This document shows, piece by piece, positions 11,003 to 26,639 of a stretch of DNA of 41,845 nucleotides. The stretch is from positions 1 through 41,845 of the IMG/VR virus record IMGVR_UViG_3300031576_000135; one strand, written 5' to 3'. Source of the DNA: a virus (Duplodnaviria; Caudoviricetes). The notes below the pieces were generated by a model. It saw only the letters and a program-made list of their open reading frames with translations. It was not told the origin of the DNA and searched no databases. A program made the translations under genes and the position numbers. How positions within the stretch are numbered: the stretch's first letter is position 1; every line of letters starts with the position of its first letter.

Positions 11003-11353
11003 TTACTTCTTCGCCGGGTAGAGGGTACCAGCCGCCTCTTTGAACGTTTGCTTCTTGCCGCCGTCGAGGCCCATGTCGGTGATCTGGATGTCGAGGGTGC
11101 GGCGCTTCTCGACGCCCTTCGCGGTTTCGAACTCGCGCTCAGAGGTGCCCACCACCTTGGCGACACCAAGCAGCTTGAAGACGGTGCCTGTCGGCGGCAT
11201 CTCCTTCATCCCGAGCGCTTCGAGCGTGCCGTCATCGAGGTAGAGGCTGGTGCCGTAGGGGTACTTGGGCTGCGAGGGCTCCGCAGGTGCATCCAGTGCG
11301 GCCATATTTTCTTCGCGCTTTTTCGGGTCGATCGCCAGATTGACGAGGTCCAT
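11003..11353 (-). CDS. Capsid staple protein, epsilon15 gp10-like
   Basis: YPYGTSLYLDDGTLEALG...LDIQITDMGL motif and position. Confidence 0.7.
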   Translation of the reverse strand: MDLVNLAIDPKKREENMAALDAPAEPSQPKYPYGTSLYLDDGTLEALGMKEMPPTGTVFKLLGVAKVVGTSEREFETAKGVEKRRTLDIQITDMGLDGGKKQTFKEAAGTLYPAKK

Positions 11354-11362
11354 GCTGGGCTC

Positions 11363-11836
11363 CTATTGCAGGCGGTACCAGGTCGAGTTGGCCGCCCGGT
11401 AGATCCAGGCTGCGGCGCCGTTCGCCGCGATCGTGGTGAGGGGGCCCTTGATCGACTGGCCGCCGTTTGGCGAAACAGTGAGCGCGGTCACGACCTGCGA
11501 GGACAGCAGGAAGGCGAATTGACCGTCTGCCGGCGCCGCGGGCATGGTCACGGTCCCGGTTGCGAGAAGGCCGGCTGGGTCAAGGAGCAGCATCCCGGTC
11601 GAGTTGCCGATCGTGATCGAGAACCCGGTGCTCGGCGTCTGATACGAGTAGCCGGTGTTCATCATCGGGCCGTTCAACGTCAGACCAGCGAAGGTCGGGC
11701 TCGAGGCCGTGCTCGTCGGCTGGCCGCCGGTACCACCCAGCACCTGGCACTGGGCTGGCTTGCCGAACGCCATCCCCGCAAGGAAGGCGCAAACGAGCCA
11801 GGCGAGGAATGCCTTCGTGTGTTCGAGCCGCATCAT
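11363..11836 (-). CDS. Beta-rich putative virion/decoration protein with a signal-peptide-like N-terminus
   Basis: ATGA overlap at 11836; MMRLEHTKAFLAWLVCAFLAGMAFGKPAQC|Q; ends WIYRAANSTWYRLQ. Confidence 0.65.
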   Translation of the reverse strand: MMRLEHTKAFLAWLVCAFLAGMAFGKPAQCQVLGGTGGQPTSTASSPTFAGLTLNGPMMNTGYSYQTPSTGFSITIGNSTGMLLLDPAGLLATGTVTMPAAPADGQFAFLLSSQVVTALTVSPNGGQSIKGPLTTIAANGAAAWIYRAANSTWYRLQ

Positions 11837-12228
11837 GTCGGCCTGTTTCCTCCAGAGATCCGATAGGCAATGGTGCCTGCGGCGTGGGCGGTGCAATTCA
11901 GCCGGTAGAGCATCCCGGGCTCTGGCTCACTGAAGACGACCGAGGCGTTTGCCGTGTAGCTCGCGGGGGTTCCCAGGGCGTCCGCCCCGCAGGTCACCCA
12001 CGTGGTGCCGCCATCGTAGCTGCGCTGCAGCAGGACCGTGGCCGTGCCGAACCCCGAGAGGAAAAGATTGAAGCTGCCAAAGAGCAGGAAGGATGCCGAC
12101 TGGCCGGTCGCCACGAAGGTGCCCTCGTACACCGTCGGGGCGAGCTCGATGCCGGTTGAGGAGGGCTTCGCCATGAAGACGAGCCCCAGTCTGGCCAGGA
12201 GCCAGAGGGTACGCTGGACAAGGATCAC
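11833..12228 (-). CDS. Small beta-sandwich putative head decoration protein with an N-terminal leader
   Basis: AAGGAGG-7nt-GTG; MILVQRTLWLLARLGLVFM leader; TVLLQRSYDGGTTW, YRLNCTA. Confidence 0.7.
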   Translation of the reverse strand: MILVQRTLWLLARLGLVFMAKPSSTGIELAPTVYEGTFVATGQSASFLLFGSFNLFLSGFGTATVLLQRSYDGGTTWVTCGADALGTPASYTANASVVFSEPEPGMLYRLNCTAHAAGTIAYRISGGNRPT

Positions 12229-12247
12229 GGTCTTGCCTCCTTCGCGC

Positions 12248-12667
12248 TTACCGTTGGGGCTGGAGTACCGTCGCGCCGGGCCCGACGATCGTGAGGGAAT
12301 CCACCGGGTTCAGGTTCCTCGAGGCCTGGTGCTGGTGGGTCTCGAACATCACGCGCGCGCACTCGTTCATGGGGACCATGTGCGGCCCGGGGATGCCCTC
12401 GTACTCGATCACGAGCGGCTTCAGATCGCCCGCATCATCGGTGCCGCGGGGGCGCCGGGTGATCGGGTGCTGGGGTTCAGCCGGATCCCAGAGCACGTCG
12501 CCGATGTAGGCTTTTTCGGTGAGCTCGTATTTGGGCTTCTCGCCGAATTGCGCGGTAAGGGCTGCCGCCTCGCGGCCTGGGATCAGCCTGGCTTTCGTCG
12601 CGCCCGCGCTCGCAGGGGCTGCGGTGGGGGCTGAGGCTGGTGCGGGTTTGGGTTGGGCCTTTGCCAT
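12248..12667 (-). CDS. Hypothetical head-module protein (resembles epsilon15 gp9)
   Basis: GGAG RBS before MAKAQPKP; PKYELTEKAYI...IEYEGIPGPHMVPMNECA. Confidence 0.6.
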   Translation of the reverse strand: MAKAQPKPAPASAPTAAPASAGATKARLIPGREAAALTAQFGEKPKYELTEKAYIGDVLWDPAEPQHPITRRPRGTDDAGDLKPLVIEYEGIPGPHMVPMNECARVMFETHQHQASRNLNPVDSLTIVGPGATVLQPQR

Positions 12668-12725
12668 GTGGTTCTCCAGTTGCCTGTGCCGGGATGCGCC
12701 CGGCGGCGCTACCGCCGGGAGGCGG

Positions 12726-13382
12726 TTATTCCTCGGTCCACTCGTAGCTGACGCCGAACTTCTCGCCTGCCGCGAGCGCGTGCCCGTTGCCGTTGACCGC
12801 GAGGAACTGAGTCGCGCCACGTAGCGTGATGCACTTCGCTGGCCGCGGCCCGCATTTATATTCCATGACTGCGGCTGCGCCGGTCGCTGGCGTCGGGATG
12901 TTGATGGTCCAGTCCACGGGGATGCCCACGACCGTGCCGACCGAGGCGGGGTTCGCGGTGTAGACGCCCGAGAGACCGTTGGCGATCACGGTGCTCGCAG
13001 CGTCGAGCGAGTCAAAGGGACCCGAGTGCGTGCCGTTGGCGAAGGCCGTGTTCACCGCGGACTGCGTGCCGCCTGATCGCAGCACGAGGCGATATTCGCC
13101 GATCGCGCCCGTGGTCGCCTGGACCGTGACGGTGATTCGCGTGATCTTCACCGTTTTCGTGGCTGAGCCCGCGAGCACCGCGACGTCGGTAGGGGTGGCG
13201 GCTGGCGTGTTGTTGCCGAGCGAGGCGAAGTAGCTCGCCTTCTGGCCCTCGACATTGACCTGGGCCGAGCCCATGAGATCGAGCGTGCTCGGGCCCGTGA
13301 TGCGATTGATGAATTGCGCCTGAGCGCCGGCCGCGCAGAGCGCGATCGCGGCCGCCAGGGCGATGTGCTTCAGGAATTTCAT
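12726..13382 (-). CDS. Beta-rich protein with a classical Sec signal peptide, inside the head module
   Basis: AAGGAG RBS; MKFLKHIALAAAIALCAAGAQA|QF; ends YEWTEE. Confidence 0.8.
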   Translation of the reverse strand: MKFLKHIALAAAIALCAAGAQAQFINRITGPSTLDLMGSAQVNVEGQKASYFASLGNNTPAATPTDVAVLAGSATKTVKITRITVTVQATTGAIGEYRLVLRSGGTQSAVNTAFANGTHSGPFDSLDAASTVIANGLSGVYTANPASVGTVVGIPVDWTINIPTPATGAAAVMEYKCGPRPAKCITLRGATQFLAVNGNGHALAAGEKFGVSYEWTEE

Positions 13383-13404
13383 GTCGTGCTCCTTCGATGA
13401 AGGG

Positions 13405-13433
13405 AAAATCCCGGGGCGATGATTTGCCCCGGG
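13405..13433 (-). terminator. Probable intrinsic terminator after the capsid and cement genes
   Basis: CCCGGGGC-AAATCATC-GCCCCGGG followed by ATTTT on the minus strand. Confidence 0.6.
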
Positions 13434-13453
13434 TCGTCCAGGCCCTCTGGGCC

Positions 13454-13987
13454 TTAGTTCGAGACCACCACGCCAGGCGGGTACGTTGGCGGGTTACTGT
13501 CCTGCGCGCCGCTCACCACCAGGTCCGCTTCGACCGTGCCAGCGGTGAAGGGGCCGGTTGCGACCACGTAGTTCAGGCGGTAGTACCTCGGGATCCCGGC
13601 CGATTGCGGCGCCTGCTGGGTGAGTGGCACTTCGATCGTCTGGCCGGCAGCGAGATTCGCCTTCGGGATGGCGTCGGTCTGCGCGAGCACTGCCCAGGCG
13701 GCGTTGTCGACCGAGCCCTGCAGCTGCACCTGCAGCGTGGTTGCGCCTCCCGAGGTGAGCGCAACGAGTACCGTCACGAGCACCTTCATGGCGAACTGCT
13801 CGCCCAGAGCCATGTCGCGCTGAGCGAGCATGTCCAGCACGTTGGTCGAGACCGCAGTCACGGTGATCGCCGTGCCGGCCGGGTCGAACTGCAGGTTCTT
13901 GTCCAGGATGATGGCGTGGACGGCGCCCCGGGCTTGCGCCCCCGCGAAGGCTGCCGCCACGAGGGCGGCGATGAGTTTGCGTTTCAT
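13454..13987 (-). CDS. Capsid cement protein (Bbp16 family) with an N-terminal leader
   Basis: AAGGAG-5nt-ATG at 13987; IILDKNLQF...STNVLD...TLQVQLQGSVDN...RYYRLNYVVATGPFTAG; directly after the capsid gene. Confidence 0.85.
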   Translation of the reverse strand: MKRKLIAALVAAAFAGAQARGAVHAIILDKNLQFDPAGTAITVTAVSTNVLDMLAQRDMALGEQFAMKVLVTVLVALTSGGATTLQVQLQGSVDNAAWAVLAQTDAIPKANLAAGQTIEVPLTQQAPQSAGIPRYYRLNYVVATGPFTAGTVEADLVVSGAQDSNPPTYPPGVVVSN

Positions 13988-14016
13988 GGCTTCTCCTTGA
14001 TGTTGGCCAGCGCGCC

Positions 14017-15126
14017 CTAAACCAGGCGCGCTTCGGTGGACAGGATCTGGTCGCAGGTCCTGACCGGCACCCCGCGGAACGTGGTGATGGGCTTGCCGTG
14101 CCATTCCCCGAGCGCTAGGAGGACGTTGGTCTTGTTGACCGCCTGGATGTCGAGGTAGGTACGGATCGTCCGGTTGGCGTAAAAGGCGCAGCGCCCGTAC
14201 TGCAGGGCTTGCGGCGCATCCGAGTCCTGCTCGGTGGAAAGCCCGACCGGCGCGGTGGGCAGCCGGTGCACCGCGCGGATGAGCGCGTTGATCAGATTCG
14301 CAGCCGAGCCGCCCGAGAGCAGCGTCACGTCGATGTTTGCGATCCTGACCGCGTAGCGCCAGTCCCTGACCGAGAGGCCCATGTCCCACTTGAACTGGGT
14401 GCGGTACCCCTGGTATTGGTTCGAGACCGCATCGAGCAGCGTCCACTCCCCCAGGTCCCTGTGCTGCAAGCCGCTGATCTGGCCCTTCGGGAAAAAGCCG
14501 TGCATCGTGTTCGGCCCCCAGCACACGAGCCAGATCGAGGTGTTGGTCGAACCCGTGCCCCCCGCATCGATCACGTTGGCTGCGGTCTGGGCCGTGGCGA
14601 TGAGCACCGTGTTGTAGCGCGGCGCAAAGCCCATAAAGCGCTCCGGGTTCACCTGGGTGTTCCCGTAGAACAGAGTGGCCGCCATCTGCTGGTTCATGCC
14701 CTCGAGGAAGGCCATGTCTTCCGACAGGCGGAATTCCGCGGTGTTGCCGTTGAGGTCGGCGAGCGACTTGTCGATCTCGCTGTAGACCTCGAGCATGCCG
14801 CAGGAGTCGATCACCTGGGCGGTCGTGCTCTTGGTCTTCGGCACGCCGTAGTTCAGCAGGCGCCAGGTGGCGCTCGGCAGGCCTGTGCGCACGGTCGTCT
14901 TGTGCCCGGTCGGCAGGTTCCCTTCGACGACGAGCATGTCATCGAGGATCTCGTTCGACTGGGAGAGCAGGTTGATGATGGTGGCGATCTTGCCGTCGTC
15001 ATCGATGCGCCGGGCCCAGTCCGCGTAGGTGAGGGCGGTGCCGCCGATGGTGGCCGCGTAGACGAGGCCGAGGCGCTGCAGGATGCCCTCGAAGAGCATG
15101 GCGAGCAGCTGGGTGAAGATGTTCAT
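14017..15126 (-). CDS. Major capsid protein (BPP-1 Bbp17 / epsilon15 gp7-like) with a 24-aa N-terminal extension
   Basis: LSQSNEILDDM, HKTTVRTGLPSATWRLLNYGV, IDKSLADLNGN, RLSEDMAFLEGMNQ, DWRYAVRIANIDV, ends TEARLV; AAGGAG RBS at the start. Confidence 0.95.
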   Translation of the reverse strand: MNIFTQLLAMLFEGILQRLGLVYAATIGGTALTYADWARRIDDDGKIATIINLLSQSNEILDDMLVVEGNLPTGHKTTVRTGLPSATWRLLNYGVPKTKSTTAQVIDSCGMLEVYSEIDKSLADLNGNTAEFRLSEDMAFLEGMNQQMAATLFYGNTQVNPERFMGFAPRYNTVLIATAQTAANVIDAGGTGSTNTSIWLVCWGPNTMHGFFPKGQISGLQHRDLGEWTLLDAVSNQYQGYRTQFKWDMGLSVRDWRYAVRIANIDVTLLSGGSAANLINALIRAVHRLPTAPVGLSTEQDSDAPQALQYGRCAFYANRTIRTYLDIQAVNKTNVLLALGEWHGKPITTFRGVPVRTCDQILSTEARLV

Positions 15127-15225
15127 CTGGATCTCCTTCAGGAAGTCATGGGGTTGGGCTCCTTTCGAGTGTTCTCGGTCCGGGTAGGCAGGGCGAGGTG
15201 TGTGCCGTCTTTGGACTCGATCGGG

Positions 15226-16236
15226 TTACTGTTGGTTGGCGAGTTTCGTCGCCCCTTGATTCGGATAGAGCACCGCCGCGGGGTTCTTGGGGTCTGGCGT
15301 CACGGCCGCACTGCCTGCCACGTGGGCCGGCTCGTTCACCGATTTCGCCAGGCGCGCCAGAAACCGGATGATCTCCGGGTGGTTGCCTGCTCCCGTGAAG
15401 TTGAAGGCTTCACGGATCTTGGCCGCCTCGGGGCCCCCGAACTTGTCGATCGCTTTAGCGATCGACGCCTTCATGGGCTCGTAGTTGGCGCCGCCGATCT
15501 CCTTGTCGCCCTTCACTTCCTGCTGCCACTTCGTCTGCGTTTCTTCCCACAGCTTGTACGGCTGGTTTGCCGCTTCCTGCAGGTCCTTGAAATGCTGGTC
15601 CACGAGGCTCTGTGCCGCCTCCTGGGTCATGCCGGCTGCGCCCGCGATCGCCTTGAACGATTCGAGTCCGGCTTTCGTCGCCGGTTCGTCGGCCTTCACG
15701 CCCTCGGGCAGCTTGAATTCGGTGTAGACGACCGGCGCTTTTGCGTCGAGGTCGAATTTCAGGCCCTTTTCCTGGGCTTGTTTCAGCGCCTCGTCGGCGC
15801 TCAGCTTGTCGATCTCGACCTGCTTGCCGCCCTTCTCGACCAGGTAGGCGCGGGCGTTGAGCACCGTCGCCGTGCCGAAGAGTTCGAGCGCCTTCGCGTC
15901 ATCGATGCCCTTCAGGTCCTCTGCATTCGAGACCGTCCGCGCGAGGCATGCCCGCGCCTGAGCACCCGTGGGCTTGGCTGGTTCGGCCGGCGCCGCGGCG
16001 CTGGCGACGATGTTCGCTTCCTTGCCGGCAGCTGCCGCCGGTGCCGCGGCGGCTGGTGCTGCTTGCGCAGCCGCAGGAGGAGCGGCTGGCTGGGGGGCGG
16101 CACCCCCTCCAGCGGCGGCAGCGGTGCCTTGAGTATCCACGAAGAGGCCGGGGCGCCCGAAGGCGTCCTCGATGATCATGCCGAGTGCGCTGCGGGCGAG
16201 CGGGGAAGCGTGGGTCCGGGTGCGTTCATTACGCAT
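15226..16236 (-). CDS. Capsid scaffolding protein
   Basis: Directly upstream of the capsid gene; Ala/Pro-rich N-terminus; GMTQEAAQSLVD, DKEIGG, TGAGNHPEIIRFL, C-terminal AAVLYP. Confidence 0.8.
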   Translation of the reverse strand: MRNERTRTHASPLARSALGMIIEDAFGRPGLFVDTQGTAAAAGGGAAPQPAAPPAAAQAAPAAAAPAAAAGKEANIVASAAAPAEPAKPTGAQARACLARTVSNAEDLKGIDDAKALELFGTATVLNARAYLVEKGGKQVEIDKLSADEALKQAQEKGLKFDLDAKAPVVYTEFKLPEGVKADEPATKAGLESFKAIAGAAGMTQEAAQSLVDQHFKDLQEAANQPYKLWEETQTKWQQEVKGDKEIGGANYEPMKASIAKAIDKFGGPEAAKIREAFNFTGAGNHPEIIRFLARLAKSVNEPAHVAGSAAVTPDPKNPAAVLYPNQGATKLANQQ

Positions 16237-16561
16237 TGCCTTCTCCCTCTTTGAGCATGGTCAGGTACTTGTCGGGGTAGTGCTTGGTCAGGTCGGCCTG
16301 GATGCGCAGGCCCACGTTCCTCTGGCCCTCGTTGAAAAAAGTGGTGCTGTTCCCGGTGAAGCTTGATCGGGAGATCCCGCAAAAGGCGAGCAGGTCCCAG
16401 AGGTACAGCCGCGCATCTGGTTGTTCGAGGATCTGCCGCAAGCCGTTCAGCCGCCGCGCTTCGTGTTGCTTGACACTGGCATTGCGCTCTCCGGCGCTCG
16501 CTGCATCGCCCAGGTCGACGATCTGCTTGACCGCCGCGGGCTTAGGCGCTGGCGCGTTCAT
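16229..16561 (-). CDS. Bbp19-like conserved phage protein
   Basis: ARLYLWDLLAFCG...TFFNEGQRNVGL motif, just upstream of the scaffold gene. Confidence 0.75.
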   Translation of the reverse strand: MNAPAPKPAAVKQIVDLGDAASAGERNASVKQHEARRLNGLRQILEQPDARLYLWDLLAFCGISRSSFTGNSTTFFNEGQRNVGLRIQADLTKHYPDKYLTMLKEGEGNA

Positions 16562-17375
16562 GGGCTTCCGTTTCGGCCGGAGAGGTGGCCGCCGAGGGGA
16601 TAATCGGGCCGCTGACCGGCGGCTCGGGCGGGGGTGTTGGCAAGCGGAAGATCGCCTCACCCGCGCGCGCCGTGTGCGTGGATAGTTCGACGTCCATATA
16701 GACCTTCAGGCCGATTGCGCGCGCCTGGTCGCAAAAGCCGATCCACTCCGGGACTATCGCTGGCATGACGCCGTACTCGATGTCTTCCTCGACCACGCCG
16801 GCCCGGAAGTACGGGCGTTTGAGCGCGCCCAGCACAGAGGCTTTCACGAGCATGCAGCCTGGCGGGATCGCGCGCACTTCGGCTACGGGTTCGCCCTCTT
16901 GGATCGGCTGATCGTCGAGCGGTGCCACGATCAGGCCCTGCTCCGCGCTCGCGCGCATGTAGGCCGCACCGACCACGTCGCGCTGCCGACTGAGCAGCTG
17001 GCGGAGCGCAAACTGCGGGAGGACGATGTCGGGTGAGACGAAGAAGTAATAGTCCACGTTCAAGGGGCGCGCCGCCTCGATCGCGTTGTTGTAGCCCATG
17101 GAGAGATTGCCCAGACCCGGCTCCACCTTGTGGCCCACGAGCGCGATCAGGGCCCCGGGATTAAAGCAAAGCGAGGCGAAGGACAAGGCGAAGTCGGCGT
17201 GCACCATCGCGCCCTGGGAGACCAGCACCACGGCCACGCGGTAGGGATTACCGGCATTCAATTCCTGGCCATCGGGGCCCACGATACCGCCCAGTTTCCG
17301 CTGGCCGAGTCCGGCGCGAAAGGCTGAGCGCACGATCGCGTTCCGGTCGCCGTTTAGTCTGGCGGGGCCGTTCAC
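16542..17375 (-). CDS. Glycosyltransferase family 2-like (GT-A fold) protein with degenerate motifs
   Basis: YYFFVSPDIVLP, RDVVGAAY, PPGCMLVKASV, RPYF, EWIGFCDQARAIGLKVYMD. Confidence 0.65.
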   Translation of the reverse strand: MNGPARLNGDRNAIVRSAFRAGLGQRKLGGIVGPDGQELNAGNPYRVAVVLVSQGAMVHADFALSFASLCFNPGALIALVGHKVEPGLGNLSMGYNNAIEAARPLNVDYYFFVSPDIVLPQFALRQLLSRQRDVVGAAYMRASAEQGLIVAPLDDQPIQEGEPVAEVRAIPPGCMLVKASVLGALKRPYFRAGVVEEDIEYGVMPAIVPEWIGFCDQARAIGLKVYMDVELSTHTARAGEAIFRLPTPPPEPPVSGPIIPSAATSPAETEAHERASA

Positions 17376-17602
17376 GAGAGAAGCTCCAGCAAGATCTCCT
17401 GGACCTGGCAGTGCGAGATCGCGTTCGGGGTAAAGGTTTCCATGAATCGCTGGGCGTCGATCTTACGGCAAAACGTCAGCGCCTGCGTTTGATCCGTCGT
17501 CCACCAGAGACCGGGCTGCGGCGCCCCCTTCGGATCAAGGGTCGGGTAGAGCGCTAGCCCCTCGTCGAACCTTTGCAGGGTATAGCCGTGCTCGGGGCTC
17601 AT
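17372..17602 (-). CDS. Hypothetical protein
   Basis: 76 aa, tightly packed in the operon. Confidence 0.55.
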   Translation of the reverse strand: MSPEHGYTLQRFDEGLALYPTLDPKGAPQPGLWWTTDQTQALTFCRKIDAQRFMETFTPNAISHCQVQEILLELLS

Positions 17603-17606
17603 CGGG

Positions 17607-17798
17607 TCAGGCTTTGGCCATGTCTGGGTAGAGGATCTGGGCCACGCTCCTGCCCTTCAACTTCGCTTGGTGCTCGGCGGTCTGGGTGGTTGAATCCTGC
17701 GGGCCCGTGGGCACCCTCTGCAGGTTGCCGCTCGCGGCGGCGCCTTTCGTGTGCGGGCCTTTGGGCGATACCGTCGTCTTGGGGTTCGCGTGCAGCAT
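17607..17798 (-). CDS. Small basic protein ending in AQILYP
   Basis: AAAGGAG RBS; 63 aa. Confidence 0.7.
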   Translation of the reverse strand: MLHANPKTTVSPKGPHTKGAAASGNLQRVPTGPQDSTTQTAEHQAKLKGRSVAQILYPDMAKA

Positions 17799-17819
17799 GT
17801 CGATCTCCTTTGTTCGTGG

Positions 17820-18086
17820 CTAGACCGAGTATCCCACAATGTCCTTCGCCTGGAACACCTCCGGGGCGTAGATCAAGTTGAGGTGCGCGACCAGCGCATC
17901 GCGCAGCTCGTCGCGCAGTTGGGTGTCGTTGGTGAGTCCGGCCACGGTGAAGGACTTCTTGCCGGAACGCTGCGGGGGGAAGAGATGCAGGAATTCCACC
18001 ATGATCTCGACCCCGCCATCTGGTGTCGTTCCTTTGCGCTCGTGCGTGAATATCCGTGCATAGACCTTTGCCTGGTGCTGGGGCAT
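17820..18086 (-). CDS. Hypothetical protein
   Basis: AGGAG RBS; 88 aa. Confidence 0.7.
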   Translation of the reverse strand: MPQHQAKVYARIFTHERKGTTPDGGVEIMVEFLHLFPPQRSGKKSFTVAGLTNDTQLRDELRDALVAHLNLIYAPEVFQAKDIVGYSV

Positions 18087-18095
18087 CTGGGACTC

Positions 18096-18365
18096 CTAGA
18101 ATTTGCAGCCGAGAACATCGGCCGCGGTGAATACGACACCAGGCACGGCCGCCAAGTCCGTGACGAAGGCCGACAATTGCTCTCGCAGATTGGCCTCTAT
18201 CTCGGTGTCCGTCATCGTCGGGATCTCGATCGGGAAGATATTCTCTCCCGCGCTCGCGCCCCCGACTGGCGCGCTTAATCGCCAGTTGATGATGATGTTG
18301 GTGAGTTCTGGGGTGTCGCCACCGCCTTGGCCGATGATCCGCGCTGATATTTTTTCGTTCGCCAT
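18096..18365 (-). CDS. Hypothetical protein
   Basis: AAGGAGG RBS; 89 aa. Confidence 0.7.
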   Translation of the reverse strand: MANEKISARIIGQGGGDTPELTNIIINWRLSAPVGGASAGENIFPIEIPTMTDTEIEANLREQLSAFVTDLAAVPGVVFTAADVLGCKF

Positions 18366-18377
18366 GATGCCTCCTTG

Positions 18378-19871
18378 TCAATCCCAGTACCCAGACACGC
18401 CGATCACGCCGTCGAATACGCCGGCGGTGATCGCGGTCAGGGACAGGATGCGAATGCCGATGTGGAAAAAATCGCCCGGATTCACAACGATGGGCGTGGC
18501 AAGACTAATACTCGAGGCCCCGGAGCGCGCGACCGCCGTGCTCACCGCTTGCGCCGCCGTCGCCACATCCAGGATCGGCAGCGGCGTCATGCGCGGAGAT
18601 TTGGTGCCGATCGTAGTGCCGCCCACGGCGTCCGCCGTGGCGAGGGATAGCGCCGTCGAACCAGCCGCCGCGAACCAGGCCCAGGCAGCTGGGCCGCCCA
18701 CGAGGGCGGTCGAAATCGTTAGGGGCGAGATTATGAGGTCCGTGATCACAAGGTTTCGCCCATCGCTCGCAGTGCCCGCCGCTTCCGGCAGCACCGGATT
18801 CTGGTACGAGCAGACTATGATGTTCGAGTGCGCGGCGACGTTGAAGGACGCGCCGTTCATGCGGTAGTACCCGCCCAGCCCCGTGATAACCGTCGCAACG
18901 TTCGAACCGGTGGCGCTTGTGGGCGCGGTGCCGGAGGCCTGGATCAGCGCGGTGTTGCCGGTCGTGCCGGTCAGGCCCTGCTGGCCTTGCGAGGAATGCC
19001 GCCCCATGAGCGCTTGGCGCGCAGCGAACGATTGATCTGCCTCGAAACCCAAGCGCTGTACTGACAGGCTACCGATGTCCAACGCTGGCGCCGAGGCTGG
19101 AGCCGTGGTGTGAAATTGCCGGATGATGATCGGGTAGCCGGAGGCCTTGACGATGTTCGCCGCATCGGGCTGGCGCACGATCTCGGCTTGGTAGACCCCA
19201 TTGACCCAGAATTCAACACCATACTGCGTAACCACCACCTCGTACTCCCGCCCCACTGCGTCCGAGTATGGCACCCCGCCGTTAATGTTCACGGTGAGCG
19301 AGGCGGGCGCCCCGCCCGTTGTGTATTCAAGAACTCCGATCAGGCCTCCGGCAGAGGTCCAGCGGAACCCCATGAATTCGTTCATCACTGCGGCTTGGTT
19401 CACCGCCACGTCGTAGTAGCCGAACCCAAACTCGAACACCTTGTTGGCGATCGCCCCGTTCGTCGTGCGGATGATCCCCTTCAAGCGCAGCGCCGAGCCG
19501 TCCTCGATCTGAAAAAGGCGCCAAGAGACGAACGAGATCCCGCTGTTGAGGGTGGTTACCAGCGCGCTATTCAGGCGCAGGAAGCCCGCAGTCAGCGCGC
19601 TCGTGAGGGTGGTGAGGTTCTGGTTGAACTGCGAATTGATAACCGTCGCGCCGTTCAGGTCCATCTTGAACATGAGGCGCGAGGTCGCCGCGTATATCTC
19701 GCCTTCGGCGGTGATCCGATTCTCTCTGGCGAGCGCCGCATCGCGCAGGTAGGCTTGGCGAAGGAGGCCCGCCTGGATCGCGGTGAGCGGGGCGTTAAAG
19801 CGCGCGTTGCCGCTCGCATCCTGCTGCAGTTCGCCAGCGACCCCAGTCAGTGCAATCTTTGCGCCAGCCAT
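18378..19871 (-). CDS. Beta-rich putative virion appendage/fibre protein (lectin-like central region)
   Basis: 497 aa, Gly/Ala/Thr-rich; EFGFG...YEVVVTQYGVEFWVNGV pattern. Confidence 0.55.
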   Translation of the reverse strand: MAGAKIALTGVAGELQQDASGNARFNAPLTAIQAGLLRQAYLRDAALARENRITAEGEIYAATSRLMFKMDLNGATVINSQFNQNLTTLTSALTAGFLRLNSALVTTLNSGISFVSWRLFQIEDGSALRLKGIIRTTNGAIANKVFEFGFGYYDVAVNQAAVMNEFMGFRWTSAGGLIGVLEYTTGGAPASLTVNINGGVPYSDAVGREYEVVVTQYGVEFWVNGVYQAEIVRQPDAANIVKASGYPIIIRQFHTTAPASAPALDIGSLSVQRLGFEADQSFAARQALMGRHSSQGQQGLTGTTGNTALIQASGTAPTSATGSNVATVITGLGGYYRMNGASFNVAAHSNIIVCSYQNPVLPEAAGTASDGRNLVITDLIISPLTISTALVGGPAAWAWFAAAGSTALSLATADAVGGTTIGTKSPRMTPLPILDVATAAQAVSTAVARSGASSISLATPIVVNPGDFFHIGIRILSLTAITAGVFDGVIGVSGYWD

Positions 19872-20291
19872 CTATACCCCCACGCACATCACATCGTATG
19901 CCCCGCGAGCTTCCGGCTCGCTGTAGACGGTTACGGTGAATCCGTTGCCCGCCACAATATCCGAAATCTCTACTTCGAGTTCGAGCAGGCGCATTTCGTC
20001 CGGGTCGGTGCCGGCTGGTGTGAGCACCTGCGGAACGATCTTCGAGTTAGCCGCCACCCACGCCTGGCCGCTCACGACGACCTGCGCCTTGTCGGTAAAG
20101 CCGGCGTCAAAGTTCACGGTCGCCGTGACCCCGTTGGCACCCCCGCCCCCGCCCCCGCTGACTGCGACAGTCGCGGTTGATCCACTGACTGTGACCGTGA
20201 CGCCAGACCCGGTGAAATCGAGGGCGCGGACATAGCCTTGGCTTACGCCCTCATCGAGCGCTTCCACGTTGTTGGCGGGTTTCGTTCCCAT
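19872..20291 (-). CDS. Putative fibre-associated virion protein
   Basis: DEGVSQGYVRALDFTGSGVTVT, poly-Gly hinge, VSGQAWVAANSKI. Confidence 0.6.
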   Translation of the reverse strand: MGTKPANNVEALDEGVSQGYVRALDFTGSGVTVTVSGSTATVAVSGGGGGGANGVTATVNFDAGFTDKAQVVVSGQAWVAANSKIVPQVLTPAGTDPDEMRLLELEVEISDIVAGNGFTVTVYSEPEARGAYDVMCVGV

Positions 20292-21121
20292 CAGCTGAAC
20301 TCTTGCACGCTCAGGCGCGCCGCGGCGGCGCTGGCGATCGCATTTACCGCGCCAAGGTCGAAATCGTACTCGTCCATCTCAAACACATCCTGCGGGTAGA
20401 GCGTGATTCCGTTATCCAGCACCGCAGCGCCGTTCATCGACAGGCTGACTCGTTGCCCGCCGGTGGAGGTGTTCCGAAGATGCAGACCTTTCCTCACCGC
20501 ATTCGCTGCGACCGCGCTCGCGCTCGCCACACCCACGGTCGCTGTCGTCGGCACTGCTGGAGCGAGGTCGGTCTTCGTATTGACCGGGATCGCGGCCTGG
20601 TCCGATGCCAGGACGACCGGGGTTGAGGCCGCCATCGTCTTTTGGCCTTGCGTATTCACCCGCGCCTGGAACCCGGCCAACGTGAGCATCGTGGCAAGGG
20701 TGGCCTCGGTCGCGGCGCCGGCGATGGTCCCGAGATTGGCGGTGAGCACATCGGCCGCGGTGAGCGCCCGGATCTGGCGCGCGTCGTACAGTGTCGCGCC
20801 AGCAGCGAGTTCGATCACGGTGTTGAAGTTGGCCGCGCTTTGTTTGATCTGCTGGCCCTGGGACCCGTAAGTCACCCCAAGGAGGCGCCCTGCGCGGTCG
20901 GTCACGTCAGCGTTGAACGTGCCGACTCCAGTCGCCGAGGTGTTCAGGTTGCCGCTCGCGTCGACCGTGAGGGTCACTGGCATCAGGAGGCTTGGGCTCC
21001 AGGCGTAGCCCAGCACGTTCATCGCGCCCGCCTGGCCGGTCACGTACTGCGGGACGAGGGAATTGATATCGAGATAGAAGACCGGCTGGTGAGCGTAGTC
21101 CCTGAGCGGTTCGAGCGGCAT
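20291..21121 (-). CDS. Putative head fibre/decoration protein
   Basis: GQKTMAASTPVVLASDQ and AANAVRKGLHLRN motifs typical of beta-rich virion proteins. Confidence 0.55.
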   Translation of the reverse strand: MPLEPLRDYAHQPVFYLDINSLVPQYVTGQAGAMNVLGYAWSPSLLMPVTLTVDASGNLNTSATGVGTFNADVTDRAGRLLGVTYGSQGQQIKQSAANFNTVIELAAGATLYDARQIRALTAADVLTANLGTIAGAATEATLATMLTLAGFQARVNTQGQKTMAASTPVVLASDQAAIPVNTKTDLAPAVPTTATVGVASASAVAANAVRKGLHLRNTSTGGQRVSLSMNGAAVLDNGITLYPQDVFEMDEYDFDLGAVNAIASAAAARLSVQEFS

Positions 21122-21378
21122 CAGCGCACGCCTTCTGAGGAGGCCATCTTGATCTTCTCGATCGCCCGCGCGACGGCGGCGGCGACTTCGGCCACGAGGC
21201 TTGCCCGCGTCCAGATTTGGGTGGGGTGTTTCATCTCCGCAAGGACGCCTGCGACCAGGTCGTCGAGCGCGATTTCGAGGTGGATCCCCCCATCCGGGGC
21301 GATCTCCGGGTCGACGAAGACGGTCACCCGGATCCCCGGGTTATGCCAGTAATTCGAGATGACGACTTTGGAGCGCAT
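21121..21378 (-). CDS. Hypothetical protein
   Basis: 85 aa; its stop overlaps the next start. Confidence 0.65.
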   Translation of the reverse strand: MRSKVVISNYWHNPGIRVTVFVDPEIAPDGGIHLEIALDDLVAGVLAEMKHPTQIWTRASLVAEVAAAVARAIEKIKMASSEGVR

Positions 21379-21396
21379 GCTGATTCTGCCGGCCGG

Positions 21397-21693
21397 TCAG
21401 TGCGTGAGGAGGCGCATGCCTCCAGTGCTGCCTTCCACGTGCCTGGCTTCGATGAGCTCGATCTTGCCCGTATTCGGGTCGCATTTCAGGGGCGGCAGTA
21501 TAGGGTGCGCGACGATGATGTAGCCGGCGTGAAAGAGGATTGATGTCTGTCCGTCGTAACCCTCGGGCAGCTGGCAGACGAAGCGGCCGCCGCGCACCGC
21601 GGCACCGAGTAGGCCTGGCGCATCGACGCGCTCGACCAGCGCGACCCTGGCGCCACGCGGGAAGATCGGATTTTCCTCGAGGTCCGGGTCCAT
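21397..21693 (-). CDS. Hypothetical protein
   Basis: 98 aa, immediately after the portal gene. Confidence 0.6.
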   Translation of the reverse strand: MDPDLEENPIFPRGARVALVERVDAPGLLGAAVRGGRFVCQLPEGYDGQTSILFHAGYIIVAHPILPPLKCDPNTGKIELIEARHVEGSTGGMRLLTH

Positions 21694-21697
21694 CGCT

Positions 21698-23425
21698 TCA
21701 GCCCAGCATCATCTGCAAGGCGTTCTGGCCTCCGCCCACGTCGGTCTCGGAGAGGACCTTGCCGGCGCCGATCGTGCTTGCGGTTGCCTGGGCCATCATC
21801 TCGGCCTGTTTTTGCTCGGCCCTGGCGGCACGTATTTTCAAGACATCTGCGAAGGGCCGGACGGCTTTGGGCGATACGCCCAGGTAGTCGGCGTACTGCT
21901 GCACCATTTCGTCCCAGTCGGCATTGTCCATGGCCTCCGGCACTGCGGCGCCGACCCGGCCGACGAAGCTTGCGAACTGCTCGATCCCGGTTGTCATGGT
22001 GGCCTTCTGGGCCTGCGCGAGCATCGAGACATACTCGACCTTCACGTGCTGGCCGCGCAGTTCAGCAGGCGGGGTAGGGATCAAGCCCGCCCGCAGCATG
22101 CAGTTATAGACCCGGGTGAGGGCTGGATCGAGAGCCTCCACCCCGAAGCGCTCGATGACCGAGCCGATCTGGATCAGCTTCTCGCCTTTGCGCTCCATGA
22201 TCTCGAGCTCGTTCCTCGGCTGCACGCCCTCCATCTGGGCCCACATCTGGAACAGATCGTTGAAGAAGGTCACCTTGATCCGCTGCTGGACTTCCTGGAT
22301 GTCGGCGACCATGTGCTGCAGGTCTGGTTTCACTTCGTAAGCAGGCTTGAAACCCACGCCGTTGGCGACCTGCGGGACATAGGTCACACCACCTGGCAGC
22401 ACGCTCGCCGGCTCGTTCTTGAGCGCCACGTCAGCGATGAGGGGGGGATTCACCATCTTGTCGATTGCCTGGGCCTTGCGCTTTTGTTCCACCTGCAGCT
22501 GCTTGACATCGCCCAGCGCGTCCATTCCGGGTGATCGACCGTAGGCATCGTTGCCGACCACATCCCAGCGGGGGGCGACGAATGGGACCTCATGGTAGCC
22601 GCGCACGCGCAGGATCCGCTCCTTGGTGCTGCCGTATTCCCAGTAGACTTCCCGGTACATCATGCCCCCTAAGCCGGGGAGACCATCGACGTATCGGTCG
22701 TTGGGCTCGATCGCATGGCAGACGATGATCTCCCGCGATCGCCCGGCGCCGCCGGTCTTCACGGCCTGCTGCACGGTGGGCGAGCAGTTTTCCATGCCGA
22801 ATTGCTCCACCACCTGCATCGTGGTCTGCACGAACTCCCGGTAGAAAGTGTCGACATTGCCGCGCGCGCCGTTGGCGAGGTAGTACTCGCCCGCGCAGGT
22901 GTTGAAGCAGTTGATCACATTCTCGAAGTCCTCGTAGATCAGCATGGGGGCTGTGCCGAAGATCCCGAGATCGCCGTACATGGTAGCGAGCGTGTTGTAG
23001 AAATTCGACTCCGCCAGCACCGAGCGCATGCGCCTGGCGACTTCATCCAGCCAGGCCTTCACCGACCAGTATTCGGCAAGGTCCGCGTCGTCGATCATCA
23101 TCCGGAACCAGATCGAGGTGGGGCTCGTCATGCCGCTCAAGAGCCCCGCGGCGAGCACGCGGGCGGCGATAGTGCCGGTTGAATCGATGATGCGCTGATT
23201 GATGGGCGAGCCCCGGTTGCCCTGGTTTGGCGTGATCAGCCACTTGTAGCGGCGCGGCAGCAGGTAGTCGGCGAGCTCTCGCCAGTGCGTCCACCAGCTG
23301 TAGCGCTCGGTCCGCAGCCCGCCCAGCATGTTGTCGACGTGCTGGCGTAGCGCGATCAGTTGCTGCTGGGTCGGATCGGGCGCGCGCCGCGGGACGCGCT
23401 GCCTGGTTGCCGTCGCTTCAGGCAT
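21698..23425 (-). CDS. Portal protein (head-to-tail connector, BPP-1/T7 gp8-like)
   Basis: HWRELADYLLPRR, IIDSTGT, LAAGLLSGMTSP, SNFY, YGRSPGMDALGDVKQLQ, FFNDLF, EYVSMLAQAQK. Confidence 0.95.
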   Translation of the reverse strand: MPEATATRQRVPRRAPDPTQQQLIALRQHVDNMLGGLRTERYSWWTHWRELADYLLPRRYKWLITPNQGNRGSPINQRIIDSTGTIAARVLAAGLLSGMTSPTSIWFRMMIDDADLAEYWSVKAWLDEVARRMRSVLAESNFYNTLATMYGDLGIFGTAPMLIYEDFENVINCFNTCAGEYYLANGARGNVDTFYREFVQTTMQVVEQFGMENCSPTVQQAVKTGGAGRSREIIVCHAIEPNDRYVDGLPGLGGMMYREVYWEYGSTKERILRVRGYHEVPFVAPRWDVVGNDAYGRSPGMDALGDVKQLQVEQKRKAQAIDKMVNPPLIADVALKNEPASVLPGGVTYVPQVANGVGFKPAYEVKPDLQHMVADIQEVQQRIKVTFFNDLFQMWAQMEGVQPRNELEIMERKGEKLIQIGSVIERFGVEALDPALTRVYNCMLRAGLIPTPPAELRGQHVKVEYVSMLAQAQKATMTTGIEQFASFVGRVGAAVPEAMDNADWDEMVQQYADYLGVSPKAVRPFADVLKIRAARAEQKQAEMMAQATASTIGAGKVLSETDVGGGQNALQMMLG

Positions 23426-23783
23426 CCTGGTACTCGGGATAGAAGGGCAGCGGCACGCACTTCCCCGCGAGTTCGTGCGGTGAGTCGGCGCAATAATCGA
23501 TCATGCCGGCCCGAAGGAAGTAGTGACATGTGGTGATCTGCGGGCCGCTCGGCACCCATTCGGCACCCACCCATTGCCCGGCGGTCGTGTAGCACCGAAT
23601 GCTCGGGCTGAAGGTGGGCTGCTCGTGGTTGCCATCAAAGCTCCAGCGTGCTCCGGTATTGGGGTGTGGCTGCTCGACGTAGATTCCATGCGGTCCTTTG
23701 CAGCCCGGGCACCAGTGCAGCCATCCAACCGGCGCGTCGGCTTGGTCGACGATCCTCCGCCGGCGCCGCGGCCCCGGCGTCAC
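23418..23783 (-). CDS. Cys/His metal-binding protein (DUF6527-like)
   Basis: HWCPGCKGPH...WSFDGN...PTFSPSI...CHYFLRAGMIDYCADSPH. Confidence 0.7.
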   Translation of the reverse strand: MTPGPRRRRRIVDQADAPVGWLHWCPGCKGPHGIYVEQPHPNTGARWSFDGNHEQPTFSPSIRCYTTAGQWVGAEWVPSGPQITTCHYFLRAGMIDYCADSPHELAGKCVPLPFYPEYQDA

Positions 23784-23802
23784 CCGGTGTCACCCGGTGT
23801 CA
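23779..23802. repeat. Short tandem repeat (GTCACCCGGT, about 2.4 copies)
   Basis: gtcacccggtgtcacccggtgtca across a gene junction. Confidence 0.6.
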
Positions 23803-24099: not shown

Positions 24100-24122
24100 C
24101 GTGCTTCTCCTTGGGTGGCTGA

Positions 24123-24371: not shown

Positions 24372-24406
24372 CAGGGCCTCCGTTGCGCCGCGAGTGCCGA
24401 ACGCGC

Positions 24407-24435: not shown

Positions 24436-24436
24436 A

Positions 24437-24637
24437 TTAGGCGAGCGGATCGTAGTCGGACTTCACCCCGGCTGGCAGCCTCACCTCCATGCCGCAGATG
24501 CGCTCAGCGCCGGGTGAGCCCTCGCGCACCCCGCAACGCTCGCAGTACCTGCCAGGGCCCGCGCCCAGGCTCATTCCATCGACCATGCGATGGCGCGCGC
24601 GGTCCTCAACGTTGCCCGTGGATGGGGTCGTATTCAC
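24437..24637 (-). CDS. Small CxxC protein ending in a terminase-like SDYDPLA tail
   Basis: YCERCG; C-terminal GVKSDYDPLA; start uncertain. Confidence 0.45.
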   Translation of the reverse strand: MNTTPSTGNVEDRARHRMVDGMSLGAGPGRYCERCGVREGSPGAERICGMEVRLPAGVKSDYDPLA

Positions 24638-25349
24638 TCTGCACGCCTGGCTTGTGGCCCAGCTTCGTGAGGTAGTTCGGCATCAGGGTCATGAGCGGGA
24701 TCCCTGAGAGGATCAGGTAGCGTGTTGCGTCCATCAAGTGGTCGCCCTCTTTCACGACCGCCCCCTTTTTGTCCCGCCGGTAGATGCGGTACTCGCCCAG
24801 CCAGTGCTGCAGCGTGCGAAAGACCTTGAGGCGCCCGGTCGAGAGGCGCTGGTACACCTCATAAATACCAGCTTCGACTGCGTTCAGCGCTTCGTTTACG
24901 CGCAGACCTTGGTCCCGGTAGTCCTGCAAGAGGCGACTGCCGTCCTTCTGGCTTCGCCCGCGTGCGGCCGGGTCGATCACGCCCTGCAGCCATTCGCCGC
25001 GGGCCCTGATCCCTGCCGCGTGTACCGACGGCTCGGCCTGAGCCCGGGCATATTCACCGATGAGGTAGAGGACGTCGGTCTCCCGATCGTGCGCTGCAAA
25101 AATAGCGGCGGTCATGTTCCAGCCCACGTCCATGCCGTAGCCGCGCGGCCAATAAGCGGGCACATCGAAGGGCTCAACTAAGATCTCGGTTTCCCCGATC
25201 GGGTAGATGGCCCCCGAGCCCAGCTGTGGCACGCCTTTGGTGCGCGCGTCCCGTTGGTAGACCGGGTAGCTCGCGGCGAGCTCTTTTTTTTCTTTCGCGC
25301 CCAGGTGCGGGGCATCGTCCCAGGTGGCGCTGACGAGGTAACGGCTCAT
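24606..25349 (-). CDS. terL: Terminase large subunit, C-terminal part (end of ATPase region plus nuclease domain)
   Basis: TWDDAPHL, RDARTKGVPQLGSGAIY, GMDVGWN, NAVEAGI, YRRDKKG, DHLMDATRY; colinear with the C-terminal half of P22 gp2. Confidence 0.9.
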   Translation of the reverse strand: MSRYLVSATWDDAPHLGAKEKKELAASYPVYQRDARTKGVPQLGSGAIYPIGETEILVEPFDVPAYWPRGYGMDVGWNMTAAIFAAHDRETDVLYLIGEYARAQAEPSVHAAGIRARGEWLQGVIDPAARGRSQKDGSRLLQDYRDQGLRVNEALNAVEAGIYEVYQRLSTGRLKVFRTLQHWLGEYRIYRRDKKGAVVKEGDHLMDATRYLILSGIPLMTLMPNYLTKLGHKPGVQSEYDPIHGQR

Positions 25350-25371
25350 CGAGTGATCACTCGATTGCCGT
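25341..25371. repeat. Hairpin with a perfect 18-bp palindrome core ATCGAGTGATCACTCGAT (25348-25365)
   Basis: Self-complementary; covers the peptidase stop and the TerL-C start; outer ACGGC/GCCGT pairing. Confidence 0.85.
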
Positions 25372-25830
25372 GCGCCTGATGCCGGTCAGCTGCCAGGCGA
25401 AGATGTCGGCCTCGAGTTCTGAGCGCGCGATCTGGGCGGCACTTCGCGGCAGCAGCACTCCCCACCCCAGCGCTACCCGCCAGAACCCGCGCCGGCAATG
25501 GCCAAGAGCAAGGTGGCCAAGCTCATGGGCCGTGATAAAAGTCAGGTCTTCGAGCGTGGTGCCGAAGAAGTAGCGCAGGTTGAAGATCACGGCTTGATGC
25601 CCGGGGAGCCCTGGCAGGTAAATCGCATAGGCCGCGGTCTTGGAATGCGGGGGCAGTGTGCGGTAGTAAAAGGTGATCGGCTGGACTCCAGCGCGCCGTG
25701 CGAGGTCCAGGGCCCAATGCTCCGGGGTGAGGCTCATGCGCTTCGCCCCACGCAGGCTGAGGCTGGTGAGAAACCAGGTAAGCAGGATGCTCGCCGCGAT
25801 CAAACCGGCTGCTATCTTGAGCGCCGTCAT
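25357..25830 (-). CDS. Membrane-anchored zinc metallopeptidase (HExxH; M48/M56/M78-like)
   Basis: ATGA overlap with the TerL-N stop; N-terminal hydrophobic helix; ITAHELGH...SELEADIFA. Confidence 0.8.
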   Translation of the reverse strand: MTALKIAAGLIAASILLTWFLTSLSLRGAKRMSLTPEHWALDLARRAGVQPITFYYRTLPPHSKTAAYAIYLPGLPGHQAVIFNLRYFFGTTLEDLTFITAHELGHLALGHCRRGFWRVALGWGVLLPRSAAQIARSELEADIFAWQLTGIRRTAIE

Positions 25831-26639
25831 CGGCTTCTCACCACCCCGCCCTCGGGGTTCTGGCCGCCTGGCATGAAGAGCATCACGACTTTGGAGAGAC
25901 CCTCGAGCGGCGTGAAAGTGAGGAGGATGACGCCGTCCGTGGTCATGGTCCTGGTCAGGCACTCGGCGTAGATGAGTTCCCCTTCGTCGCCTTCGGGTTC
26001 TTCGTCCAACCAGATCCCGTGCTTGGCGGTGCCCTCGAAGCTGCCGCGGCCCTGCTGGTAGGATTTCACCCCGAGTGTGGACCAGCCGTCCTGGTCGCCG
26101 TGCGCATCGTGGTGCTTGACCGTCATGGTGTCGATCAGATCGTGGGATTTCCAGGTGATCTCGCCGATGTCCTCCCACGGGATGAGTCCGGTGCCGCTCA
26201 CCCGCTTCTCGCCGTCCTGGTAGGCGATGTCGCCGAACATAACCTTTTGCAGGATGTCGCGGGTGGTCTCGTTCGTTTTGCCGCCCATCCACCATTCGAC
26301 CGGGTGCGCGAAGCGCCGGCCCGGCCACCAGGGTGGGTAGCGCCCGGTCAGATGGCAGGTGGTCTCGTAGCCGCCCATGCCTTCGGTCTTCCCGACCCGG
26401 TTCGCGCACATCGCGCAGCGCTCGCGGTGGAGGGTGCCAGCTTTGAAGAATTCCAGGTGTTTTTTGTAGAGCGCGCGCCGCAGGGGCCCGGTGTCCGGGT
26501 AGTACGTCCACAGGCGCCGGCGCGCGCGCAGGAGGTCGCGCTGCTCGAGGAGCGCGATGAGCTCGGCCTTGTCGCCCACGCTCAGGCGTTTAAGCAGCGC
26601 GGGATTTGTTTCGATCTCGTCTAGGCTGACGCGCGCCAC
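25827..26639 (-). CDS. terL: Terminase large subunit, N-terminal ATPase part (P22 gp2-like)
   Basis: Walker A CANRVGKT, HLTGRYP, KSYQQGR, Walker B IWLDEEP, coupling motif LTFTPLEG. Confidence 0.9.
   Translation of the reverse strand: MARVSLDEIETNPALLKRLSVGDKAELIALLEQRDLLRARRRLWTYYPDTGPLRRALYKKHLEFFKAGTLHRERCAMCANRVGKTEGMGGYETTCHLTGRYPPWWPGRRFAHPVEWWMGGKTNETTRDILQKVMFGDIAYQDGEKRVSGTGLIPWEDIGEITWKSHDLIDTMTVKHHDAHGDQDGWSTLGVKSYQQGRGSFEGTAKHGIWLDEEPEGDEGELIYAECLTRTMTTDGVILLTFTPLEGLSKVVMLFMPGGQNPEGGVVRSR

Follow-up and report, generated by a model that had tools for sequence, protein, structure and literature searches.

In Staphylococcus phage 80alpha, the host cysteine protease Prp (C108) acts in head maturation and removes 13-14 residues from the capsid and scaffold proteins at an F↓A junction (the arrow marks the cut); this cleavage is dispensable, and the scaffold leader is essential (PMC5744158 and PMC9261936, in the parts available). 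We describe N-terminal leaders in a virus record of 41,845 bases (IMGVR_UViG_3300031576_000135; 'the window' is this whole stretch of DNA), which are carried by the major capsid protein, the cement protein and a third small head-module protein. Judged from sequence, they are probably membrane-seeking propeptides removed by a predicted small zinc peptidase of the phage itself, a miniature M48-type protein (mini-M48; 25830-25357). The initial annotation of the window had proposed a leader-peptide system analogous to that of 80alpha. The analogy stands as far as the in-register motif, the recurrence of capsid leaders and the matching of leaders within a phage are concerned, but not for the enzyme and the junction. 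As in the available accounts of the Prp system, a short N-terminal motif is found on the capsid and, here as a weak match, on the scaffold, and in other phages on non-homologous virion proteins too, and removal of the leader, predicted here, gives the mature N-terminus. Unlike in those accounts, the motif in the window is G-[LA]-V-x-x behind a hydrophobic helix, no L27-like F↓A site is present, and the predicted junctions are V-Y-A↓A in the capsid protein, V-H-A↓I in the cement protein and V-F-M↓A in the third protein. Furthermore, the phage lacks Prp and instead encodes its own candidate, a predicted zinc protease, and the host is probably a betaproteobacterium.

Classical prohead proteases, such as HK97 gp4, T4 gp21 and phiKZ gp175, are soluble serine proteases that act inside the prohead. 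Prp apart, the phage head-maturation enzymes known to us are all serine proteases. Like the prohead proteases, the phage enzyme proposed here would remove N-terminal propeptides of several head proteins at a short motif; unlike for them, its predicted substrates include a cement protein on the outside of the head. The head itself is of the type found in the podophages BPP-1, epsilon15 and phiV10 (gp7/Bbp17 capsid, Bbp16 cement), for which we know of no maturation cleavage. The minus strand of the window, on which all the genes and leaders named below lie, encodes the same module of capsid (PF20911), cement (PF21190), scaffold, portal (PF12236, T7-like) and tail tube, together with a nozzle, internal virion proteins and matches to PF25675 and NF045672. 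The solved capsid chains of BPP-1 and epsilon15 align from residue 2-3 and have no leader, whereas this phage adds leaders and a candidate peptidase.

The major capsid protein (14017..15126, 369 residues) is of the BPP-1/epsilon15 gp7 type (PF20911, E 3e-139; NF045672; PDB 3j4u/3j40). Its leader of 24 residues (15055..15126) is amphipathic and ends in R-L-G-L-V-Y-A, the predicted mature start being A25; the homologues' Met corresponds to residue 24. The cement protein (13454..13987, 177 residues) is of the Bbp16 type (PF21190, E 3.5e-25) and starts at the ATG at 13987, within a longer spurious frame. Its leader of 25 residues (13913..13987) consists of a signal-peptide-like stretch followed by G-A-V-H-A, with I26 as predicted mature start. 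The third protein (11833..12228, 131 residues; the 11833 protein) was placed by Atlas phage clusters (score 0.95-0.96) in a family of small beta-rich phage proteins, some clusters of which are XepA-like. The initial annotation had called it a decoration protein; it is a small beta-rich protein of the head module with a putative decoration role. Its leader of 19 residues (12172..12228) starts with a GTG behind AAGGAGG and ends in R-L-G-L-V-F-M, with A20 as predicted mature start. These three N-termini and that of the scaffold, all quoted in the initial annotation, are present in the window, and a Shine-Dalgarno site was found at each of the four starts, as had been claimed.

The absence of a Met codon where capsid and cement homologues begin, also noted initially, was borne out. 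In 80 of 80 IMG/VR loci the capsid start is no more than a few codons away from residue 24-25 of the window protein, and a capsid leader was found in one of 175 distinct capsid loci from all collections (L150). Two further loci had been flagged as having capsid leaders, but are artefacts, one because of overlap with the upstream gene (L081) and the other because of its position at a contig edge (L229). The alignment of BcepC6B from residue 1 is explained by overlap with the upstream gene. The cement leader is absent from all 15 homologous proteins and all 101 cement loci. The eight distinct homologues listed for the 11833 protein all start at or near its M19.

The capsid ATG is positioned 99 nt after the scaffold stop, directly behind a minicistron of three codons (15138..15149), the stop of which overlaps the capsid Shine-Dalgarno site. 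This minicistron is conserved in 16 of 40 distinct loci at >=70% capsid identity, the window's own copy included. In leaderless homologues that keep the long spacer, the distance from scaffold stop to capsid start is 90-107 nt. In many leaderless homologues the start Met has this same position relative to minicistron and spacer, which makes the capsid ATG the orthologous start; the ATG of the cement gene is orthologous as well. The capsid and cement proteins are thus made with leaders, there being no Met at the homologous position. An alternative origin, insertion of a leader behind an ancestral ATG, was rejected since that ATG belongs to the conserved minicistron. The 11833 protein has M19 exactly at the homologues' start, so that an internal start is possible; the strong ribosome-binding site belongs to the upstream GTG. 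The leaders of all three proteins are genuine N-terminal extensions over their homologues.

The minicistron, of three to four codons, was also seen in L003, L007, L008, L010, L012, L014, L016, L019, L021, L023, L024, L116, L117, L119 and L156, and some 60 nt upstream of it are partly conserved. It has the appearance of a natural enhancer of capsid translation that acts by translational coupling.

The likeness of the leaders might be due to chance or to the choice of start codons. A 5-mer common to any two of the window's 44 N-termini occurs in 88% of shuffles, with 2.1 pairs expected on average, and this, together with M19 of the 11833 protein and the weak scaffold match, would speak for such an explanation. 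The pattern R-x-G-L-[VF], defined post hoc, occurs three times in the 11,651 residues of the 44 window proteins, each time in a leader N-terminus. A stricter test fixes the alignment position by the homologues' mature N-terminus and then obtains P by shuffling. In this register the capsid leader matches that of the 11833 protein with P 1e-4 (7 residues) and that of the cement protein with P 3e-4 (5 residues) or 2.5e-3 (7 residues); the best of ten leader pairs has P 2.5e-4 to 6e-3. The motif common to capsid and scaffold, a trait of 80alpha, is therefore strong here for the capsid with the 11833 and cement proteins, but weak for the scaffold against the capsid or the 11833 protein (P 0.01-0.03), the scaffold register having been chosen by the analyst from its likeness to other scaffold leaders. 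The cement-scaffold pair and all pairs with the leader of the 12726-13382 gene, described below, were not significant in the register test. Artefact is also opposed by the missing start codons and orthologous ATGs of the capsid and cement genes, by capsid leaders in other phages (15 of 42 non-self hits and four of 150 distant representatives) and by a public contig at ~46x, possibly the window's source sample, that matches positions 11300-26800 with no differences. Chance or artefact is thus very improbable.

In the capsid, cement and 11833 proteins, G-[LA]-V-x-x has exactly the same position relative to the mature N-terminus of the homologues. With the Gly at P5, the predicted mature starts coincide in position with the processed ends of the homologues, after the Met in the capsid and 11833 proteins and at the Met in the cement protein. 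The initiator Met is removed before Ala or Gly and kept before Ile. The mature starts predicted initially (ATIGG, AKPSS and IILDK) fit the homologues' N-termini. Three of five codons in the region common to the capsid and 11833 motifs differ silently, which argues for selection at the protein level and not for duplication of DNA. The R-x-G-L-V motif originally described persists in this phage as the in-register G-[LA]-V-x-x; as a family-wide motif it does not, because extended homologues do not share it letter for letter.

Two signal-peptide-like starts exist in addition to the four N-termini noted initially. The gene 12726-13382 begins with a leader of 22 residues ending in A-Q-A↓Q (13317..13382), which is not found in the homologues in L031, L040 and L042, and the gene 11363-11836 with a stretch of about 30 residues (11747..11836), recognized by hydropathy and similar to the start in L090/L110. 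Maximum hydropathy is 1.97-1.99 for the 12726 start and the first 19 residues of the cement protein, 1.46 for the capsid protein and 1.28-1.41 for the 11833 protein. Judged by hydropathy, the features of a Sec signal peptide (basic n-region, hydrophobic core, A-x-A) fit the 12726 start and the first 19 cement residues; the fit is weaker for the amphipathic leaders of the capsid and 11833 proteins, the latter of which lacks A-x-A. A-G-A-Q-A is found in both the 12726 and the cement leader, but the 12726 leader does not have the G-L-V register. With their A-x-A↓Q starts, 12726 and 11363 may belong to a separate signal-peptidase class, since homologues of 11363 (L090/L110) carry such a start in phages with leaderless capsids.

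The scaffold is a weak member of the set. Its N-terminus of about 34 residues (16135..16236) ends in R-P-G-L-F-V-D and resembles other scaffold leaders. The gene (15226..16236) belongs to phrog_458, which, like its BPP-1 counterpart, is labelled 'protease', and the scaffold-type protein could accordingly be the leader-cutting enzyme itself. The label has no support from Pfam, NCBIfam or PDB structures, however, the gene is present throughout leaderless phages, and the Ala/Pro-rich linker and C-terminal L-Y-P tag suit a scaffold; there is very little chance that this is the enzyme. Similar C-terminal tails with L-Y-P are found on the scaffold and on the proteins of 11003-11353 and 17607-17798.

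Leaders occur on relatives of the capsid protein as well. A search biased towards the N-terminus found that 15 of 42 non-self capsids have leaders of 31-46 residues and no Met at the usual start (one of these, P0043, is frameshift-like). They are either amphipathic, mostly ending in G-[LA]-[VIM]-x-[YF], or of a transmembrane type, in which hydrophobic residues and a Gly form the end. The transmembrane type is also carried by the four distant representatives (of 150, at 50% identity; one chimeric row was set aside). Capsid leaders are rare in the gp7-type family, but recurring. In a quick capsid tree, which leaves out P0039, P0043, identical rows and most enterobacterial rows, 14 leader rows need seven changes, at least two of them forced by strong branches. 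The capsid leader appears from these comparisons to be labile and phage-specific. When DNA patterns were designed to detect capsids with leaders, none of 33 IMG/VR loci proved to have one, and the metagenome collection gave only the window's own record.

Scaffold leaders, which are basic, Leu-rich and 10-15 residues long, are common in phages and prophages of beta- and gammaproteobacteria, including the enterobacterial epsilon15/phiV10 type, and are absent from phages of delta hosts, from most phages of alpha hosts and from BPP-1. Loci with scaffold leaders are L001-L024, L046-L080, L116-L119, L150 and L156; a phage mini-M48 was seen in none. Capsid and scaffold leaders from one phage are more alike than those from different phages (23.1 versus 18.7, 0 of 20,000 permutations, n=19), and a second family behaves similarly (P 0.02, n=6), relatedness being uncorrected in both.

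It is conceivable that the leaders are not cut, or are cut incidentally, and serve as folding or membrane-docking helices that are retained or optional. Leader types have been gained, lost and swapped among capsids that are >=90% alike (within 90% clusters), and most relatives do without leaders. Moreover, 80alpha with uncleavable capsid and scaffold is viable, only an intact scaffold N-terminus being needed (PMC5744158, in the part available). This is nevertheless improbable, because in each of three unrelated proteins the end of the motif coincides with the mature N-terminus of the homologues, down to the difference in Met retention, and because the leaders are paired with a protease gene. 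A retained hydrophobic arm of 25 residues on the outer cement protein would also be hard to place.

The protease gene in question (25357..25830) encodes 157 residues with an N-terminal hydrophobic helix, the zinc-binding signature H102-E103-x-x-H106 (H-E-L-G-H) and a downstream E138-x-x-A-D (E-L-E-A-D). It separates the N-terminal ATPase half of the terminase large subunit (25827..26639, PF03237), whose stop overlaps the peptidase start, from the C-terminal nuclease half (24606..25349, PF17289), and is translationally coupled within the packaging operon. The split is at the ATPase-nuclease linker; in L129, L157, L158 and L160 the two halves form one stretch. H102, E103, H106, E138, A141 and D142 are invariant in 10 of 10 aligned proteins, partly by construction because the nine others were found by motif. 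All eight relatives scanned pass the PF01435 cut-off (21.9-44.1 bits). A profile of the mini-M48 family best matches Ste24p (E 4.6e-10) and ZMPSTE24 (E to 4e-9), and Atlas places the window protein with a 55-member viral M48 cluster (TM 0.75, sufficient for naming). The structural model (pLDDT 74.8) has BlaR1, Ste24p and ZMPSTE24 as top Foldseek matches at TM 0.53-0.60; a single-sequence model was poor (pLDDT 54), and the fold search from it was uninformative.

The 157-residue protein is thus a candidate M48-like zinc protease. With M48 enzymes (Ste24p/ZMPSTE24, HtpX, BepA; PF01435) and the neighbouring M56 family (BlaR1) it shares HExxH, the downstream E-x-x-A-D and a membrane anchor. Unlike the cellular M48 enzymes, the phage mini-M48s have 110-160 residues, one helix anchor or none, and a location among packaging and head genes. 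Ste24p trims the N-terminal extension of a-factor. The candidate is the only protease-like gene found in the phage: Prp (PF04327) and S26 signal peptidase had no matches there, and no member of the serine prohead protease family was found among 45 window open reading frames scanned. In the control, Prp matched three of 14 genomes, none of them proteobacterial, in a set that does not include the true host. The gene at 21397-21693, after the portal, was dropped as a possible cutter because phages without leaders have it too (26 non-self loci), and a literature search on TldD/E as a host cutter gave nothing relevant.

The distribution of mini-M48 links it to leaders. Direct homologue searches with the window peptidase returned itself or nothing, and an alignment-based scan mostly returned longer, unrelated HExxH proteins. 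A DNA-motif scan of IMG/VR (CAC-coded His, 21-31-codon spacing) yielded an incomplete set of 86 loci with 70 distinct proteins. By the analyst's reading, the majority are other, longer or IrrE-like HExxH proteins. Ten small stand-alone mini-M48 loci were examined; nine adjoin terminase, portal or head genes, and the capsids of these nine phages start with leaders. Their capsid leaders and those of neighbouring scaffold or accessory proteins are basic, hydrophobic and mostly alike within a phage. The nine belong to four other head types: Mu-portal (L277, L257), N4-gp56 (L283, L299, L269, L295, L247), P22 coat (L271) and DUF4055-portal (L253). The closest peptidases, from L277 and L257, are from phages whose leader is nearly like the cement and 12726 leaders of the window.

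In the N4-gp56 type, all 57 distinct capsids have a leader, and leader and mini-M48 occur together in 45 of 45 distinct loci with at least 3.5 kb upstream, 44 of which were outside the training set. In the Mu-portal type, mini-M48 was found within the flank of two of six leader loci and none of 15 leaderless loci. A whole-record search added a mini-M48 14 kb upstream in the record of L445, which has a leader, and found none in L442, whose capsid has a leader, or in five leaderless records (41-76% complete); three fragments of 5-13% were uninformative. In the gp7-type family, no mini-M48 was detected in 237 loci (best E 3.7), of which 96 distinct ones reach at least 2 kb upstream of the portal, as far as the window's peptidase gene; the window's own copy in this set ends before that gene. 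Mini-M48 is also absent from five gp7-type genomes with leaderless capsids that are 94-100% complete. The co-occurrence check proposed initially thus favours the HExxH protein of the phage itself over a protease of the host.

Two side observations concern these phages. Long fibre-like proteins in the N4-gp56 mini-M48 phages L371, L378, L421, L423, L424 and L425 have A-x-A↓Q signal-like starts, like window proteins 12726 and 11363. A second group of M48-like proteins, of 180-205 residues and with signal-like starts, is found in low-G+C phages (L241, L245, L250, L270, L274, L287 and L296).

A number of observations weigh against assigning leader removal to the mini-M48. The window protein scores 19.8 bits with PF01435, just below the cut-off of 20.3, and its Foldseek E values of 0.006-0.02 (above 0.001) do not separate M48 from M56. 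Size and motif guided the choice of the nine loci, which was made in part by eye; about ten M48-like proteins of 180-205 residues were left out of the examined set, and the mini-M48 of L316 (phmmer 1.8e-7) is outside the head module. All members of the N4-gp56 set have leaders, and 45 of 45 may therefore reflect one inherited state. Profiles made from other phages' leaders rank the window sites 19th-42nd of 11,387 positions, or miss them. The 15 other leader-bearing gp7-type capsids enter the comparison with no gene context. Finally, L143 (1-1317) has two unrelated small genes in the same terminase linker, and the peptidase gene may be a passenger there.

If the mini-M48 is such an unrelated terminase insert, the leaders would be cut by host proteases, which might be membrane proteases such as HtpX or, for leaders of A-x-A type, signal peptidase I, or else some other enzyme of the cytoplasm. 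This explanation would suit the insertion hot spot in the L143 linker, as well as capsid leaders in phages that have no mini-M48: L150, of the gp7 type with a transmembrane-type leader, has none between terminase and tail and none elsewhere in its genome bin (the contig is cut), and L442 keeps a 41-residue capsid leader although its record, 59% complete, contains none. Leaders on the scaffold alone are frequent among prophages of beta- and gammaproteobacteria, to which they are confined, being absent from alpha and delta hosts, and these have no mini-M48 whatever; A-x-A↓Q starts are found on 11363-type proteins in phages with leaderless capsids. The involvement of host Prp in 80alpha provides a precedent (PMC5744158, as far as available).

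Against a host enzyme, mini-M48 and leaders on several proteins occur together in five capsid families. Leaders on accessory proteins of cement or decoration type are seen only with mini-M48: the cement of L150 has none although its capsid does, and two accessory proteins of L442 are leaderless where M48-bearing relatives have leaders. Motifs that differ from phage to phage are more readily explained by an enzyme of the phage than by an invariable one of the host, and several capsid leaders have Tyr or Phe at P1, which does not fit signal peptidase I. Host cleavage of the leaders is on balance unlikely. The pattern of occurrence suggests two tiers, in which scaffold-only or capsid-only leaders would be possible without the enzyme, being host-cut or uncut, and leaders of cement and decoration type would go with it.

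Removal by the mini-M48, which we regard as the probable course, can be pictured as follows. Newly made proteins would be kept on the cytoplasmic side of the inner membrane by their amphipathic or signal-like leaders; tethering of this kind is consistent with their hydrophobicity. The orientation of membrane proteins is set by the positive-inside rule. The peptidase would be anchored by a helix of residues 2-26 with basic residues behind it, leaving its catalytic domain in the cytoplasm. The predicted cut, five residues after the Gly, would restore the N-termini that leaderless homologues obtain from their initiator Met, and the scaffold is probably a fourth substrate. The purpose would probably be to localise or time head assembly, with cement and decoration proteins inactive until their release. 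The cut may be dispensable for viability, as in 80alpha.

Other parts of the window are less closely connected with the leaders. The nearest prophage capsids (79-83%) are from Ralstonia, Herbaspirillum, a beta-proteobacterial bin and Paraburkholderia, and a betaproteobacterium is therefore the likely host of this phage, whose record has 65% G+C and is 92% complete. The internal-virion region encodes a protein of 976 residues (364-3294) with an ART-PolyVal ADP-ribosyltransferase domain (E 2e-20). Between portal and scaffold, about 4 kb (17372-21693) contain mostly unique genes, including those for Ala/Gly/Thr-rich proteins of 497, 276 and 139 residues, homologues of which are absent from the fetched loci. 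Just upstream of the scaffold region, 16542-17375 encodes a 277-residue phrog_1574 protein that is glycosyltransferase-like by eye; it is kept in 39 non-self loci and occurs also in the mini-M48 phage L295.

In the open literature (subscription papers not being covered), no report was found that assigns an M48 protease to virion maturation or describes leaders for heads of the BPP-1/epsilon15 type; the available parts of PMC5850374 and PMC13434306 contain nothing about leader cleavage. Leader-dependent virion maturation is thus likely to be new to this head type. A wider proposal has, in our view, not quite an even chance of being right: that a mini Ste24/HtpX-like zinc protease and phage-specific leader tags form a portable module, spread over at least five unrelated capsid families, which gives membrane-staged, protease-gated head assembly even in BPP-1/epsilon15-type podophages, and that a phage which gains the enzyme can add the tag to cement and decoration proteins besides capsid and scaffold.

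If removal of the leaders by the mini-M48 is correct, a zinc leader peptidase of M48 type would be a new class of enzyme for virus head assembly. Proteolytic maturation would enter a podophage head type that has been regarded as protease-free, and head assembly would be tied to the membrane. The peptidase and its three substrates with predicted cut sites bear on the purpose of shared virion leaders, a question that is unanswered even in 80alpha. A protease of 157 residues with a retunable site of five residues could serve as a tool. Furthermore, many of the 'signal peptides' called on capsids of uncultured phages may be assembly tags.

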